This document shows positions 19,501 to 28,500 of a stretch of 64,000 bases of DNA, piece after piece. The DNA is taken from contig CAWHFW010000002.1 of assembly GCA_963828735.1 (NCBI GenBank), forward strand, positions 640,001 to 704,000, written 5' to 3'. Position 1 is the stretch's first letter; every line of letters begins with the position of its first letter. The position numbers are program-made. The stretch is from an uncultured Gemmatimonadales bacterium (lineage in GTDB: Bacteria > Gemmatimonadota > Gemmatimonadetes > Gemmatimonadales > GWC2-71-9).

Positions 19501-22500
19501 AGAACGGCGTCATGGTGTCCCAGAAGTTCGGCTCAGTACAGCCGATGCAGGGATGTCCGGCGCCGATGGGCCAGCTGGTGCCTGAGTTCCACTGGAAGAT
19601 CGGACAGGGAGAGAAGGTCGCCGGTCCTTTGCACCCGACATGATAGAGGCACCAGCCTTTTCGTGCCGCCTCGTCGTCGAACTCCTCCACGTACTGGCCG
19701 GCATCGTAGTTGGCCCGCCGCGGGCACTGGTCATGAATGCGTGCGCCGTAGGCGAACAGCGGCCGGCCCTCGCCGTCCAGCGCGGGGAGGCGGCCGAACG
19801 TCAGGTAGTGGACGATGGTGGCGGTGACCACGTCGCCGATCGGCGGACACCCCGCGATGTTCACCACCGGCTTGTCCTTGACGATGGTCGATACGCCCAC
19901 CGCCCCCGTCGGGTTGGGCCGCGCCGCCTGGACGCTACCCCAGTGCGCGCAGGCGCCGATGGCGATGACCGCCGCGGCGCCGGCCGCTGCCTCCTCGAGG
20001 ATGACCTTCGCCGTGCGGCCCGCGATCGTGGTGTAGATACCGTCGTCCGCCAAAGGCACGGATCCGGTCACCACCAGCAGGTACTTCCCGGCGTTTCCCT
20101 TCATCGCATCGTGCAGCGCCCGCTCGGCGGCCCCACCGGCCGCGGCCATCAGGGTGTGCGAGTAGTCGAGCGAGACGAGATCCAGGATCAGGTTGCCGAT
20201 GGTGGGATCCGCCGTGCGCAGCACGCTCTCGACGCACCCGGTGCATTCCTGGAGCTGGATCCAGACGACCGAGGGCCGCGTCATCGTTTCCAGGGCGCGG
20301 GCGATTCGTGGGATGGCCAGACGATCGAGGCCGAATACTGCGGCTAGGCCTCCGCAGAACTCGAGGAACTCGCGACGGGAGACGCCTCGTGACCGGAGAT
20401 GATCACCGAGGGAGTCACCATCACTCCACGGAATGGGATGGGGAACCAGCATCGTGGCTCCTTCGGCTGAGGGCCGAGCGCGAAGCGACGCGCCGAGTGC
20501 GGTCGGGCGGGATACGCGAACAAAATCAAGGATTTGAAGGCGGATCCCCATAGTCAAGCTAGACCATGGTCTCGGCCAGTGTTCGTGAAGGTTTTCTTAG
20601 GGAAGGGAGGGTCTACGAACGTATAGTATTGCGCAAATCGCAGGGATGGATAAAAGTAGTAGCGGTTCTGGCCCGTCCCGTGTCCCACCGCGTCGCTCGA
20701 AAACAGCAGGCCAAGGCGGACCTATGCCGACTGCTAGGGTTCTCCACCGACCCCTTCTTCCGCTGGTCGCGACCGTGGCAGCGTTGCTGCTGGCCTGTAG
20801 CGACACCCAGGAAGTCCCGCGAGAGCCGTTCAATCCACCTCCCGATCAGACCAACAAGTTCCTGGGCTACTTCACTGCCAGCGACAAGCTGACCGCCTGC
20901 GGCAACTGCCACGCCGAAAAGCAGGCGGACTGGGCCAACACCAAGCACGCCCAGGCCTGGGCAGACCTCGTGGCCTCCGGTCATCAGAACTCGGACTGCA
21001 ACAGTTGCCACAGCGTGAGCGAGCGGGGGAACGCCGCCGCAGCGCCGGCGGGGTACACCGCGGTCGCCGACACCGCGTACCAGGACGTCCAGTGCGAGAG
21101 TTGTCATGGATCGGGCTTCGAGCATGCGTCGAGCCCGACGATCGAGAACCGGCCACTCGCGACCATAGCCATCCCGGCCGATCCGGCGCAGTGGGTCGAG
21201 TCCTCCACATGCGGCTCCTGCCATCAGGGCAGCTTCTCGCCGTTCGTCGAGCAGTGGAGCCAGTCGGCGCACGCCAGGACGGTGACGGACGTGATCCAGG
21301 ATATCGTCGACGATCCTGGCACCAGCTGCTCCGCGTGTCACGAGGGACGGCATGTCCTCGAGGCGTGGGGAGTCAACACGAATTACGTCGAGAAGGACGA
21401 GACGGTCACCCTCGAGAACGCGATGCCGACCACCTGCGCGATCTGCCACGATCCGCATGCAAAGGATCACGAGGGACAACTTCGCTGGGCGATCGACGAT
21501 CCCAATCCCGATAACAACTTGTGCATGAAGTGCCACAACCGGCGCACCGAGCCACAGGCGACGAGCTCGCGAGGTCCGCATGCGCCGCAGGGTGGCGTGC
21601 TCCTGGGCACCGCGGGGTACTGGCCGGCCGGCTTCGATACCACGGCTGTCACCGCCACGCACGGGAACGTCGCCGTCAACACCCGGCTCTGCGCGGGCTG
21701 CCACGTCGCGCCGTTCGAGGTCACCGACGCGAGCGGGAACGTGACCTTCCAGTCGACCGGGCACAGCTTCAGCCCCGACCCGTGCATCGACGCCAGCGGG
21801 AAGCCCACGGGCGACACCACCTGCGCGCGGCCCGGTGATCCCACCTTCGTGAGCGGTGTGCGCAAGTTCAACGGCTGCACAGCCTCCGGCTGTCACTCGA
21901 CCGAGGAAGCCGCGGAGAACGCCTTCGAGGCGAACCGCAATATCGTCCGGCTGCTGGCCGACCAGCTCTGGGTCGACGTCAACGGCAACCAGGTGTTGTA
22001 CACGACCGATCCGGTCACGGGCCAGGCCACTGGCTTCGATCCCGGTGACACGGGGCTGCTGACGCAGGTGCCGGTGACCGAGTTCAATGCCACGGACAAC
22101 AAGATTACCGACGCGGAGGGCGTGCTCTTCAACGTGCGGCTCATCGGAGAGAACCGTTATGCCAACGGCGATCGCTCGTTCGGGGCCCACAATCCGTTCC
22201 TGTCGCAGTCGCTGTTGACGGCGAGCATCGACGCGCTGAAGGCCACGTACGGGCTCGCCGTGACGCCGCAGGTGCAGAGGCTCATGGACCAGGTCAAGGC
22301 GCGGAACCCCCGGGCGCGCGCCCAGTTCACGATCAGTCGGAGGTGAGCAAGCCCAGGAAGGGATCGACTCCGGCCACGTTCACCGGTTAGCATTTTTCGG
22401 CATGATCGGGCTCCTCGCCACGATCGCTTCGGCCACGGCTCCTCTCCCGGGACGGGAAGGGGCCGTGGTCGCTGTGTTGCAGGCCCAGGACACGCTGACC

Positions 22501-25500: not shown

Positions 25501-28500
25501 CGAGACTCCGTTGGTCCAGGTCGACGACGACGGCTGGCGTCTGGGCACGGGCGTGACCTACAGCCCGTCGGCCGCCTGGAGACTGGATGCCGGCTATCGG
25601 GAGGAGAACGGACCCGGCGCGTCGTCCCATGGATTCGATGGCACCGTCACCTTCGTTCCGTTTCCCGCACTCTCGCTCACCGCCTACGGAACGACGCTCG
25701 ACCGCCCGCTCGAGTTCCGCTTCGAGGAGGCGTCGGTCGATGCGCTGGGCCTCGACGCCGAGTGGAGCCCGACGAACCGGCTTCGATTCGCGGTCGGCAT
25801 CGCGCGTTACATGGAGGACCGCAAGCGTCCGGACGCGGCGGCGTTCGACTGGGACCAGACTCGCCTTCATGCCAGCCTGACGCTGCTTCTCCAAAGCAAC
25901 GCCGATGTCGCGCCGCTGCCGCGCGCGCTGCGGACGTACCCCCCGGCGGGCTCGCCGTGATGCTCCGGGGACTGAGACTCCTCGTCCTCGTCGCGCTCTC
26001 GGTCGCCGCTGGCGGCTGGGCCGTGCAGCACGCGTTGCAGGAACGGTTTGATCACTGGCAACACCGCGCGCTCTTTCCAACGTGCATCGGCTGCCACGCC
26101 GGCGCGGCGGATTCCAGCCGATCGCTCTGGCCCCAGCCGTCCGATTGCAAAACCTGTCACGACGGTGCGGTCGAAAAGGCGGTGGAGTGGGCGCCGCCGG
26201 GCGCGCCTCGCGCGAGCAACCTCCGATTCACCCATCAGGACCACGCTCGCGCACTCGCGCACTCCCGCGGCGCCGATTCCACGCTTCGGTGCAGCGCCTG
26301 CCATACCTCGCAGGGAGCTGATCGCATGCGGGTCAGCTCAGCGGTCGTGGAGAATTGCCTCGAATGTCATGGCATCAGGACCGCGCATCTGAGCGCACCG
26401 GACACGGCGTGCGTCACGTGCCACGTACCGCTGGTACAGGCGGTGCGGCTCACCGAGGAACGGGTGAAGGGCTTTCCGGTCCCCGACTCTCATCGCGAGC
26501 CGGGCTTCGCGTCGACCGGCCACGGGAAGCTCGCACGGGCCGGCGGCGCTCCCGTTGCAGCCTCCTGCGCCACGTGCCACGCCCGGGACTACTGCACCCA
26601 ATGCCACGTGAACGCCCCCGAGGTGCAGGCCATCCAGGCGCTGGGTCCAGACCCGCGATCGCTCGCGATCGAGGCAAAGCTCGAGGCCCCGGAAGACCAT
26701 GCTGACCCGAACTTCCTCCGACGGCATGGAGGCCAGGTCCGGAAGGAGTCAGGCCGGTGTGCGGTCTGCCACACGCAGCAGAGTTGCGTCGCGTGCCATG
26801 TCGGCTCGCCCGCGAGCGTGCAGGCGATCCCGATCGCCGGTCCCGGCCGGGGCCCAGGTGCCACGATCCACCGGGAGCGACCGATCTCTCACGGTCAGAA
26901 TTTCTCCAAGACGCATGCCGAGCCGGCTTCGGCGCGGCCTCAGACCTGCAGCGGTTGCCACGCCCGCGCGGAATGTCTCTCCTGCCACCGGCCGGACGCG
27001 GCCGAGGCGTCGCCGGGCTTCCATCCCGCGGGCTTTCTCACGACCCACCCTTCGGCGGCCTACTCCCGTGAGAGTTCGTGCAGTGAATGCCATAACCAGG
27101 GGCAGTTCTGCACCAATTGCCACGTGAATGCCGGGCTGGTATCGCCCGGTCGCCTCCGAGGTACCGGCTATCACGACGCCAAGCAGTCTTTCCTGCTCAA
27201 CCACGGTCAAGCGGCGCGCCAGAGCCTGGAGACCTGTGTCTCCTGCCACTCCGAGCGTGACTGCCTGACCTGCCACTCCGCGGTGGGCGGCCGCCGCTTC
27301 GACCCCCACGGCCCAGGCTTCGATGCGGCGACGCTCAAGCGGAAAAATCCATCCATGTGCACCGCCTGCCACGGCCTCAACACTCCAGAGTGAACAGGTC
27401 TTTCGCCCTGGGGCGCTGCGTTCGCGCGATCAATGCCGCCCGGTCCGGTGACCTGAGCTAGGCATTCCGGGCGTCGGCCCGCGGAGCGCGCGCCCACGCG
27501 AGGGCCGCCCCGACGGCTCGCTCCCACGCCTCCCGCAGCGCCCGCCGCTCGGGGCCGCCGAGCGTAGGAACGAACCGGTCGAACCGCCGTCCGGCCAGAA
27601 ACTCGTCGCTCCCCTTCCACACCCCGAGCGCGATGCCCGCGAGCCCCGCCGCGCCCAGCGCGGTGGTCTCCACCATGTCGGGCCGCTCGACCGGCACGCC
27701 CAGCACGTCCGCCTGGAACTGCATCATCCAGTCGTTCGCCGAGGCGCCGCCGTCCACCCGGAGGGCGGGCACCTCGAAGCCTCCGGTCCGCGTCATGGCC
27801 TCGAGCAGGTCGGCGCTGCTGAACGCCATCGCCTCGAGCGCGGCCCGCACCAGGTGCGCGCGCGTCGTCCCGCCGGTGATGCCGGTGATCGTTCCCCGCG
27901 CCTCCGATTCCCAGTGCGGCGTGCCGAGCCCGGCGAAGGCCGGCACGAAGTGCACGCCGCCCGTGTCCGGGACGCTCCGCGCCAGCCCTTCCGAATCACC
28001 CGCCACCTGCAGCAGCCGCAGGCCGTCGCGCAGCCACTGGATCGCCGCGCCGGCGATGAACACGCTGCCCTCGAGCGCGTAGGCCGGCTCGCCCCGCGGA
28101 CCGCAGGCGGCCGTGGCGAGAACCCCGTTGGCCGGGAGGGGCCGGCAATCGCCGGTGTACACCAGCAGGAAGGCGCCCGTCCCGTAGGTGTTCTTCGCCA
28201 TGCCGTCCACGCAGCAGCCCTGGCCGAACAGCGCGGCCTGCTGGTCGCCCGCGAGCCCGGCGATCGGGAGGCTGACGCCCAAGTGGGCCCGGTCGGTTTC
28301 CGCCACCACGCCCGCGCTCGGCACGATGTCCGGAAGCAGGTCCGGCGGCACGCCGAACAGGTCGAGCAGCTCCTCATGCCACGTCCGCTTGGCCAGATCG
28401 TACAGCAGCGTTCGGGACGCATTGGTGTGATCGGTGACGTGAGCCCGCCCGCCGGCCAGCTTCGCCACCAGCCAGCTTTCGATGGTGCCGGCGGCCAGCT

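Follow-up and report, generated by a model that had tools for sequence, protein, structure and literature searches.

Introduction

In every described porin-cytochrome (Pcc) cluster, the barrel gene lies next to a gene for a periplasmic multihaem cytochrome (PMC4245776). The Geobacter-type Pcc has a porin of 18–22 strands and a periplasmic cytochrome of 5–14 haems (Shi et al., 2014, PMC4245776). PCC3 and PCC4 contain a 5-TM cytochrome-b-like protein with HX13H motifs, two in PCC3; the extracellular cytochromes of PCC3 have a median of 34 haems, and PCC4 has periplasmic proteins of 4, 5 and 10 haems (He et al., 2017, PMC5566968). The Desulfovibrio ferrophilus clusters DFE_0448-0451/0461-0465 carry NHL beta-propeller genes and no apparent porin (PMC9769857). 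OmhA and OcwA were described as cell-surface proteins, and OcwA as a terminal reductase (PMC6703420, PMC9250108). The phylum Gemmatimonadota, which makes menaquinone and has many soil aerobes with terminal oxidases, has mainly been treated as O2- or N2O-respiring heterotrophs, and a term search of a phylum-wide survey of its energy metabolism found no passage on extracellular electron transfer (PMC9426454).

Here, a four-gene locus (A–D) was analyzed in a 64,000-nucleotide stretch of DNA (the window) from an uncultured Gemmatimonadales bacterium. With a probability of roughly 0.6, we read it as a self-contained conduit from menaquinol to the cell surface that probably respires extracellular acceptors and is partly fed by H2; we infer its direction, its substrate and the formation of a complex.

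Gene organization and proposed electron path

The positions and shared orientation of A–D given in the initial annotation were recovered, as were their divergence from the hydrogenase small subunit, large subunit, cytochrome b and protease genes and their proximity to ccmE, ccmF and ccmH (Table 1). The stop of B, read through, overlaps the start of C (GTGA), and the ATG of D overlaps the stop of C. These 6.7 kb hold 45 haem motifs and every other cluster in the genome holds at most 5, so the accumulation is not due to chance. A promoter and terminator scan gave nothing exceeding chance. One soil metatranscriptome contained contigs with 0–3 differences in A, C and D, for which DNA carry-over is possible and from which strand and level are not readable; four further RNA runs gave small shares, and RNA is not counted as evidence.

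Table 1. Features of the conduit locus and its neighbourhood (positions in the window).
Feature	Position	Strand	Description
Gene A	20724..22346	+	540-aa lipoprotein cytochrome, 9 haem motifs, helical C-terminal bundle, OcwA/OmhA-related
Gene B	22402..24455	+	~683-aa inner-membrane-anchored cytochrome, 18 CXXCH + 2 CX4CH
Gene C	24452..25960	+	502-aa outer-membrane beta-barrel, signal peptide, 22 strands, plugless
Gene D	25960..27393	+	477-aa 16-haem cytochrome, probably periplasmic, ~28 aa per haem
[NiFe]-hydrogenase small subunit	19304..20452	-	Signal Tat-like; proximal cluster with the standard motifs CTGC and WGSV
[NiFe]-hydrogenase large subunit, group 1 type	17592..19307	-	
Hydrogenase b-type cytochrome subunit, quinone-reducing	16834..17598	-	TIGR02125 over cut-off
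Hydrogenase maturation protease	16266..16919	-	
Double zinc-ribbon protein, travels with ccm genes	15472..16269	-	
ccm genes, cytochrome c maturation	12328..15524	-	ccmE 14997-15524, ccmF 12951-14984, ccmH within 12328-13092

The 8, 18 and 16 haems assigned earlier to A, B and D hold as counts of CXXCH motifs but not as totals, A having 8 CXXCH plus 1 CX4CH and B two further motifs. Since CXXCH and CX3-4CH interchange among the orthologues of A and B while the totals stay constant (9 in 69 of 70 for A, 20 in 57 of 58 for B), 9/20/16 is the better count.

In the mechanism we propose, B would oxidise menaquinol through its NrfH/NapC-type domain and relay the electrons through the periplasm over its 16 further haems. 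D would then dock inside or beneath C, the 22-strand barrel, and move the electrons across the outer membrane to A, an OcwA-like lipoprotein that would act as terminal reductase at the surface. Under low oxygen, the acceptors could be Fe(III)/Mn(IV) oxides, humic quinones or partner cells, and the neighbouring uptake hydrogenase may be one donor that reduces the quinone pool. A–D very probably constitute an envelope-spanning conduit, and outward respiration is probably its main use; a physiological coupling to H2 oxidation is put forward tentatively, at somewhat short of an even chance.

Hydrogenase link and direction of electron flow

The barrel was found in 74 of the 77 genomes with this uptake hydrogenase, compared with 133 of 301 overall, a link that the initial annotation had understated; these counts include kin genomes and are not independent. 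Where both were on one contig, they lay at most 30 kb apart in 33 of 39 cases, and an MtrB-like barrel is present in each of the two hydrogenase carriers without a barrel match. The idea that hydrogenase and conduit form an exclusive unit was rejected, as this hydrogenase is absent from 59 of the 133 barrel genomes. As a control gene, nosZ was also counted, and 88 of the 117 nosZ genomes carry the barrel. Given the 59 genomes without hydrogenase and the enrichment of nosZ, part of the hydrogenase-barrel link reflects a shared low-oxygen lifestyle. O2-tolerant group 1d hydrogenases have two extra cysteines at the proximal cluster; this feature was not found in the small subunit here, which has CTGC and WGSV.

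The same conduit might run inward, passing electrons from Fe(II), reduced humics, minerals or partner cells to the quinone pool and on to O2 or N2O respiration. The family of B does not fix the direction, because NapC/NirT proteins can occur in iron oxidisers, and the NapC/NirT-type ImoA accompanies the Mto uptake pathway (PMC9600427), but the closest solved relatives of A are surface proteins of iron reducers. Terminal oxidases are found in the many soil aerobes of the phylum (PMC9426454), and nosZ occurs both here and in 88 of the 133 barrel genomes, as inward flow would have it; on the other hand, the only RuBisCO-family match in the genome is weak (E 1.5e-20), and the hydrogenase linkage fits an outward sink because an uptake hydrogenase supplies electrons. 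Moreover, menaquinone is a low-potential quinone and a poor acceptor for electrons from Fe(II), which also speaks against inward flow. We consider inward flow unlikely and retain outward respiration.

Genes B and A at the two proposed ends of the conduit

In B, which has two predicted TM helices, a further 16 haems follow an NrfH/NapC-type tetrahaem domain. The domain was missed in the initial annotation and was found by profile searches. NrfH (2J7A) was the sole significant PDB match of the N-terminal profile (E 4.2e-7), TIGR03153 matched with E values to 1.5e-10 and a score of 41 (cut-off 134), and the Pfam NapC/NirT/NrfH family scored 20 (cut-off 24.1). The N-terminal TM anchor and homologous tetrahaem domain of this family are both present in B, with scores under the curated cut-offs. 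In an alignment of 59 rows (one mis-parsed row left out), the Met of haem-1 CXXCHXM is present in 41 and is Phe in 18, including the B of the window; of the two NrfH residues of the quinol site, Asp89 has Gln or Glu at its position in 46, and Lys82 is not kept at its position. No NrfA was found in the genome as a partner for the NrfH domain.

Profile comparison related A to OmhA (6QVM, E 2.8e-20) and OcwA (6I5B, E 8.2e-14), a kinship absent from the initial annotation. A has the homology, nine haems and C-terminal three-helix bundle of OcwA/OmhA, and 68 of 70 orthologues have an H-N-P type motif at the end of this bundle. A lipobox pattern, which alone does not separate inner from outer membrane, is likewise present in 68 of 70. 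The His-His motifs over the two five-coordinate haems of OcwA are not consistently kept in A: with the sites mapped from local alignments, the pair is present in 23 of 70 at the one and in none of 42 parsed rows at the second. The structure model of A reached a pLDDT of 46.8, fold searches on it gave generic helical bundles only, and it was not used. A remains with C-D in all 6 loci lacking an inner-membrane module, 3 of which have tandem copies of A. We propose that A is a terminal oxidoreductase, presumably located at the surface.

It is quite unlikely that A and B instead form a periplasmic NrfHA-like reductase of a soluble substrate such as nitrite, hydroxylamine or sulfite, with C and D separate or in a supporting role. 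Such an enzyme would account for the NrfH-like domain that opens B, for the homology of A to the NrfA/MccA/c554-related group with its C-terminal helical bundle, and for the adjacency of A and B in 44 of 68 loci. However, A stays with C-D in 16 of the 23 loci without B, a simple NrfH requires 4 haems and not 20, no multihaem ORF of the genome has a CXXCK motif, and the catalytic His pairs of OcwA are not conserved in A.

Barrel C, cytochrome D and their distribution

The model of C (pLDDT 92.6, from an 85-sequence alignment) has 22 membrane strands plus one extended loop strand and no plug, so that the barrel of about 24 strands described earlier was rejected. A long loop follows strand 1 and contains a near-invariant Cys pair. 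The best structural matches were TonB-receptor barrels (Z 18–19), followed by PapC (17.2) and MtrB (16.6). C had no Pfam, NCBIfam or PDB sequence match; PDB sequence searches with both barrel alignments gave nothing at E 1, and there was no match in the plasmid collection.

In 80 of 80 loci read, the barrel gene is directly followed by a D-like cytochrome gene (9–18 haems), the first haem motif of which lies 87–237 nt past the barrel in every case. Sixteen haems were counted in 65 of 87 D-type ORFs and in the window, and 12–14 in some variants. The locus has two general Pcc features, a barrel gene beside a periplasmic multihaem cytochrome gene (80/80 loci) and a multihaem lipoprotein cytochrome in the cluster (A, lipobox in 68/70 orthologues). 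D is proposed to be a wire, probably periplasmic, that would insert into C.

In an alternative that we regard as improbable, C would not be an insulating sheath but an export or substrate channel of usher- or exporter-like type, secreting for example D or A as an extracellular cytochrome, or the haem array would mainly be a periplasmic electron store. In its favour, the structural neighbours of C include the ushers PapC/FimD and alginate exporters (Z 14–17), and among named Atlas clusters the nearest are unrelated barrels of the outer membrane (0.92–0.93) with few features in common. However, these matches are 7–13% identical and reflect barrel size only, and C is without a plug or the periplasmic domains of ushers. 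A wire-like cytochrome also follows C in 80/80 loci, and the two co-evolve as far as another class.

The barrel was found in 133 of 301 genomes of the phylum, a wider spread than first annotated, and an MtrB-like barrel in 14 of 301. Among 68 loci with at least 4.5 kb upstream, 45 have B, none of them with another quinone-type module. In 17 of the 23 others, a NapC-fused 19–22-haem protein or a cytochrome-b-fused 11/19-haem protein is present; for the remaining 6, the stretch read contains no inner-membrane module. Searching with the D alignment yielded 550 related stretches; the 80 that were kept are MAG records, 78 of them labelled Gemmatimonadota, one bacterium HR33 and one Acidimicrobiaceae, so no cultured carrier was identified among them. 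Distant relatives carry the names Glassbacteria, Zixibacteria, Calditrichota, KSB1, Marinimicrobia, a Chlorobi MAG and Eisenbacteria; a search starting from the distant barrels found 11 close proteins, hypothetical or nameless only, and did not reach the named Pcc porins.

Frameshifts in B

B is indeed broken in this assembly, by four one-base breaks near 22727, 23931, 24056 and 24415, although all 18 CXXCH motifs are readable over three frames, not about 13 as first counted. Independent, near-identical contigs have the corrected sequence at every break, and one of these contigs is 579 bases long with 4 other differences; B is therefore most likely intact in the organism and the breaks are most likely assembly errors. 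The reconstructed protein is 69–73% identical to four intact orthologues. That the window copy is decaying and B a true pseudogene is extremely unlikely, for although A, C and D as well as the hydrogenase and ccm genes showed no frameshift, independent contigs correct every break in B, all 20 motifs are intact, the read-through stop overlaps the start of C, and hypD elsewhere in the assembly is likewise split over frames.

Significance

This conduit family is invisible to Pfam, NCBIfam and PDB sequence searches and about 10 times as frequent as MtrB-like barrels (133 vs 14 of 301). If it works as proposed, a large overlooked group would join the redox cycling of iron, manganese and humics in soil, a new marker gene would be at hand, and Shewanella or E. 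coli could serve as test hosts for a four-gene, 45-haem, shuttle-free wire. The locus also puts into a diderm porin conduit a protein of the OcwA type, which is known from the cell walls of Gram-positive bacteria. A bolder reading, possible but doubtful, is that this is a fifth, undescribed porin-cytochrome class, without sequence kinship to Mtr or Geobacter Pcc and missed by current marker HMMs, in which a 20-haem protein wires the menaquinol pool across the periplasm without a soluble shuttle to an OcwA-type reductase, and by which nearly half of Gemmatimonadota, a phylum abundant in soil, respire minerals or humics, many lineages with H2 as donor.

Comparison with known conduits

The barrel fold, the adjacency in 80/80 loci and the lack of an MtrB match support the initial proposal that this is a porin-cytochrome system of a non-Mtr kind and points to extracellular electron transfer; we infer electron transfer by the A–D system. 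C gave no NCBIfam match to TIGR03509 (MtrB/PioB) at E 0.01, with none in G000; for TIGR03508 (decahaem DmsE/MtrA), D had no match and A and B scored 19–34 bits against a cut-off of 192. With no partner over this cut-off and 16 haems in D, filing under Mtr/Mto/Pio was rejected. Shewanella MtrCAB with CymA shares the proposed layout of a NapC/NirT-family quinol dehydrogenase, a periplasm-facing multihaem wire in a barrel, a surface lipoprotein and, in some loci here, tandem surface cytochromes. In contrast, the MtrB chain has 649 aa and C 502 aa with 22 strands, the haems are 10 + 10 in Mtr and 16 + 9 here, and the CymA-like part of B is fused to its own wire.

B shares with NrfH, CymA and ImcH (NapC/NirT family) a TM anchor followed by a tetrahaem domain, and ImcH is likewise an extended member (7 haems, homologues 5–9). 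Unlike these, B has 20 haems in a single chain and does not keep Lys82, and the B lineage of the window has Phe for the haem-1 Met plus a 13-residue insertion. A resembles OcwA (Thermincola potens, 6I5B) and OmhA (Carboxydothermus ferrireducens, 6QVM) in profile and C-terminal helical bundle, with nine haems as in OcwA, but these come from Gram-positive cells without a porin, whereas A is a lipoprotein next to a barrel, and their two His-His motifs are not consistently kept in it.

Compared with the Geobacter-type Pcc (OmbB-OmaB-OmcB, ExtABCD; Ignavibacterium album IALB_1839-1837), the 22 strands of C are within the 18–22 range, the lipoprotein cytochrome also has atypical CX3-4CH motifs, and some of those clusters include an inner-membrane cytochrome. 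Distant loci (L103-L108), with a 410-aa barrel, a 12–14-haem cytochrome and a CxxxxCH/CxxCH protein, resemble the I. album cluster as described (PMC4245776). D in the window, however, has 16 haems against 5–14, A is OcwA-like, and the operon itself encodes a quinol dehydrogenase with a fused 16-haem extension. Gemmatimonadota are absent from the Pcc hosts listed in PMC4245776, and the comparison with OmbB/OmaB/OmcB/ExtB is one of described features.

In PCC3 and PCC4, too, a single cluster supplies a porin, long multihaem proteins and a link to quinone at the inner membrane. PCC3 was rejected on account of the four genes only, the two predicted TM helices of B and the 9 haems of A, and PCC4 on account of 9/20/16 haems here versus 4, 5 and 10. 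Filing with the DFE clusters was rejected because a barrel is present and no NHL family match was found. On the best reading the conduit works like a porin-cytochrome complex; it is not Mtr, PCC3 or PCC4.

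Gene layout and proposed electron route

The layout described in the initial annotation was confirmed. Genes A (OcwA/OmhA-related lipoprotein cytochrome), B (predicted inner-membrane cytochrome), C (predicted outer-membrane beta-barrel) and D (predicted periplasmic cytochrome) lay within 20724-27393 of the window, divergent from the hydrogenase operon and with ccmE, ccmF and ccmH nearby. The genes on the hydrogenase side were, in order, small subunit, large subunit, b-type cytochrome, protease, zinc-ribbon gene, ccmE, ccmF and ccmH. In many loci, the conduit and ccmE/ccmF have as a neighbour a double zinc-ribbon protein with no assigned function (15472-16269, minus strand, in the window). 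The downstream flank (27458-34703) carried glycerol-kinase-family and IF-2B-family genes, an enoyl-CoA hydratase, a RecF-like gene and gyrB.

Window coordinates of the four conduit genes
Gene	Position	Strand	Remark
A	20724-22346	+	co-oriented with B, C and D
B	22402-24455	+	stop overlaps C start codon
C	24452-25960	+	stop overlaps D start codon
D	25960-27393	+	last of the four co-oriented genes

The CXXCH counts claimed earlier (8 in A, 18 in B and 16 in D) were reproduced, but one additional CX4CH motif in A and two in B had been missed. Motifs of the CX3-4CH type bind haem, according to PMC4245776. Orthologues interchanged CXXCH and CX3-4CH, and the A total stayed at 9 in 69/70, the B total was 20 in 57/58, and 16 motifs were present in 65 of 87 D-type proteins. 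With totals of 9, 20 and 16, the operon holds about 45 haems. Elsewhere in the genome, no multihaem ORF with more than five motifs was found.

On the gene anatomy, folds, homologies and co-occurrence observed here we place a putative route, in which localisation, contacts, direction and substrate are predicted. H2 or an organic donor would reduce menaquinone, menaquinol would deliver electrons to B, and the 16 further haems of B would pass them to D, from which they would cross C to reach A and then an external acceptor. Electron flow in the inward direction through the same proteins is unlikely, although it keeps some weight.

B as a putative quinone link

A profile built from 13 B N-termini was compared with the PDB, and D. 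vulgaris NrfH was the sole significant match (E 4.2e-7). TIGR03153 matched B down to E 1.5e-10, below the family cut-off. The CXXCHXM Met was present in 41/59 B rows (the mis-parsed row L100 was dropped), and Phe together with a 13-residue insertion was found in 18/59, including the B of the window. The Asp89 position was Gln or Glu in 46/59, and Lys82 was not conserved in the profile alignment with NrfH; the weight of these residues was taken from the ImcH preprint (10.1101/2023.05.03.539133). NrfA was sought in the genome and was absent. Gemmatimonadota make menaquinone, as stated in PMC9426454. Judged from its sequence, B joins a quinol-dehydrogenase-like domain to a haem wire in a single chain.

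Among strong loci with at least 4.5 kb of upstream DNA (68/74), A was found in 60, B in 45 and both in 44. No other quinone-type module was found in the 45 B-carrying loci within the stretch read. Of the 23 loci without B, 17 carried a NapC-fused 19-22-haem protein, or an 11- or 19-haem protein fused to cytochrome b, and the other six had no such replacement module in the stretch read. Pfam NapC/NirT scored above cut-off in the one NapC-fused protein scanned. The strongest case for B as the quinone link comes from this complementarity.

A second inner-membrane cassette accompanied the same barrel in L044 (4843-10638), L099 (2213-11352) and ten other loci. It contained a 9-haem protein, the NapC-fused 19-22-haem protein (CXXCHXM Met in 12/12 rows) and 11- and 19-haem cytochrome-b fusions, which we take to be CbcL-like.

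A, D and the barrel

The lipobox pattern was present in 68/70 A orthologues, and the top matches of the A profile were OmhA (E 2.8e-20) and OcwA (E 8.2e-14). The His-His active-site motifs of OcwA were inconsistently conserved in A. D carries a signal peptide and, at about 28 residues for each haem, is denser than MtrA wires, for which 33 is quoted. That A and B instead form a periplasmic NrfHA-like reductase is distinctly unlikely.

Searches of Pfam, NCBIfam and PDB sequences gave no match for C, and 351 relatives were found among 50% cluster representatives. The model of C (85 sequences) reached pLDDT 92.6 and showed 23 strand elements. We take one of these (53-65) to be the return arm of a long loop that follows strand 1 and carries a near-invariant Cys pair. 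Instead of the about 24 strands claimed earlier, the model gives 22 membrane strands and no plug. Its best structural matches were TonB-dependent receptor barrels, which have 22 strands (Z 19.1, rmsd 4.3, 371 aligned), followed by PapC (Z 17.2) and MtrB (Z 16.6), all at 7-11% identity. A little less probable than the reductase is a non-conducting C, or a haem array that serves as an electron store.

Frameshifts in B

The breaks for which B had been called broken were compared with contigs from 4 of 20 listed runs. Near 22727, one extra base was present in contigs of three DNA runs from two studies. One base fewer was found at 23931 in the contig of one run (579 bases, four other differences), at 24056 in contigs of two runs, and at 24415 in the contig of the RNA run. 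With X placed at each break, the read-through B comprised 683 aa with 18+2 motifs and was 69-73% identical to four intact orthologues. The four breaks are most likely assembly errors, as judged from the contigs; the operon is real and conserved, and probably intact. Decay of the window's copy is very improbable. The hypD gene was also split across frames, in three pieces (contig C5, 830494-831545), a further sign of indel errors in the assembly. The best matches to window DNA among the runs were rhizosphere and soil metagenomes, one of which may be its source.

Distribution of the barrel

A phylum-wide set of 301 genomes was screened with the barrel profile, and 150 of them matched: 133 gave strong matches, at E 8e-56 or better, and 17 gave weak ones, 15 of which fell in another class. 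The MtrB profile matched 14 of the same 301. Eighty loci were read: 63 came from taking alternate entries in a list of 126 strong matches, a further 11 were picked in other families, and 6 were weak ones. A D-like gene directly followed the barrel in 80/80. Weak barrels were remote homologues (HHalign 99.1%), and D homologues adjoined them (99.7%). Relatives of the weak-locus D proteins bore the names Glassbacteria, Zixibacteria, Calditrichota, KSB1, Marinimicrobia and Chlorobi; one barrel relative was named Eisenbacteria.

Several further cytochromes were observed. Next to a distant barrel locus, an 8-haem cytochrome (L107, 10358-12412) matched the FlgD Ig and secretion C-terminal sorting domains; a further 20-23-haem cytochrome lay a few kb downstream of D in L043 (17173-19596), L052, L055, L062 and L093; and a divergent 4-/5-haem cytochrome pair was near the cluster in several families (L023, 4468-6050; L027, L029, L080, L090, L094, L102). 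A 6.4-kb contig labelled Acidimicrobiaceae (L123) encoded a D protein 70% identical to that of the window, probably a binning error.

Relationship with the hydrogenase

The hydrogenase large subunit was present in 77/301 genomes, with a strong barrel in 74, a weak one in 1 and an MtrB-like barrel instead in 2 (G082 and G258). These counts include kin that are not independent, and linked genes are lost together from fragmented assemblies. Of the 74 genomes, 21 have the hydrogenase and barrel genes within 12 kb of each other and 12 have them 12-30 kb apart; 6 carry both on one contig but far apart, and in 35 the two lie on separate contigs. In seven genera variable for the barrel, 15/15 hydrogenase genomes were barrel-positive (joint chance about 2e-5); this test covered genera with listed totals, which leaves out those of the two exceptions. 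An exclusive hydrogenase-conduit link was rejected: 59 barrel genomes had no hydrogenase, and the control nosZ was also enriched (88/117).

The small subunit was without the extra cysteines that mark O2-tolerant hydrogenases, which fits low-oxygen use. In a same-genus relative (L021, 6755-8348), the large subunit was cut to about 140 residues with the conduit kept, and that stretch showed neither the hydrogenase cytochrome b gene nor the protease gene. On contig C5 of the window's genome, nosZ scored above the TIGR04246 cut-off (1741469-1743271), and a weak RuBisCO-family match (1563607-1564302) is probably a RuBisCO-like protein.

Comparison with known systems

The cluster was undescribed in the literature searched, outside which most subscription journals lay; the genes may appear in the supplements of PMC11316326 and PMC13264449. 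In the literature searched, the nearest published statements are FeGenie matches of marine Gemmatimonadota (three MtrABC operons, Cyc2 and DFE_461-465 homologues; PMC11316326) and multihaem proteins of vent MAGs (PMC9769843). Within the porin-cytochrome kind, the notable features are a barrel family missed by current models, a putative fused quinol-dehydrogenase wire and an OcwA-type lipoprotein, and the putative conduit is frequent in a phylum not known for extracellular electron transfer.

The cluster would work like MtrCAB-CymA, yet tests for Mtr gave negative results, as did those for PCC3, PCC4 and the D. ferrophilus clusters. It would also work like the porin-cytochrome complex (Pcc) of Geobacter, with a strand number inside the Pcc range and a haem number outside it. 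The distant loci resemble the I. album cluster, compared by description only. The cluster may be a far branch of the Pcc class, with putative kinship to OmbB/ExtB or to the I. album cluster.
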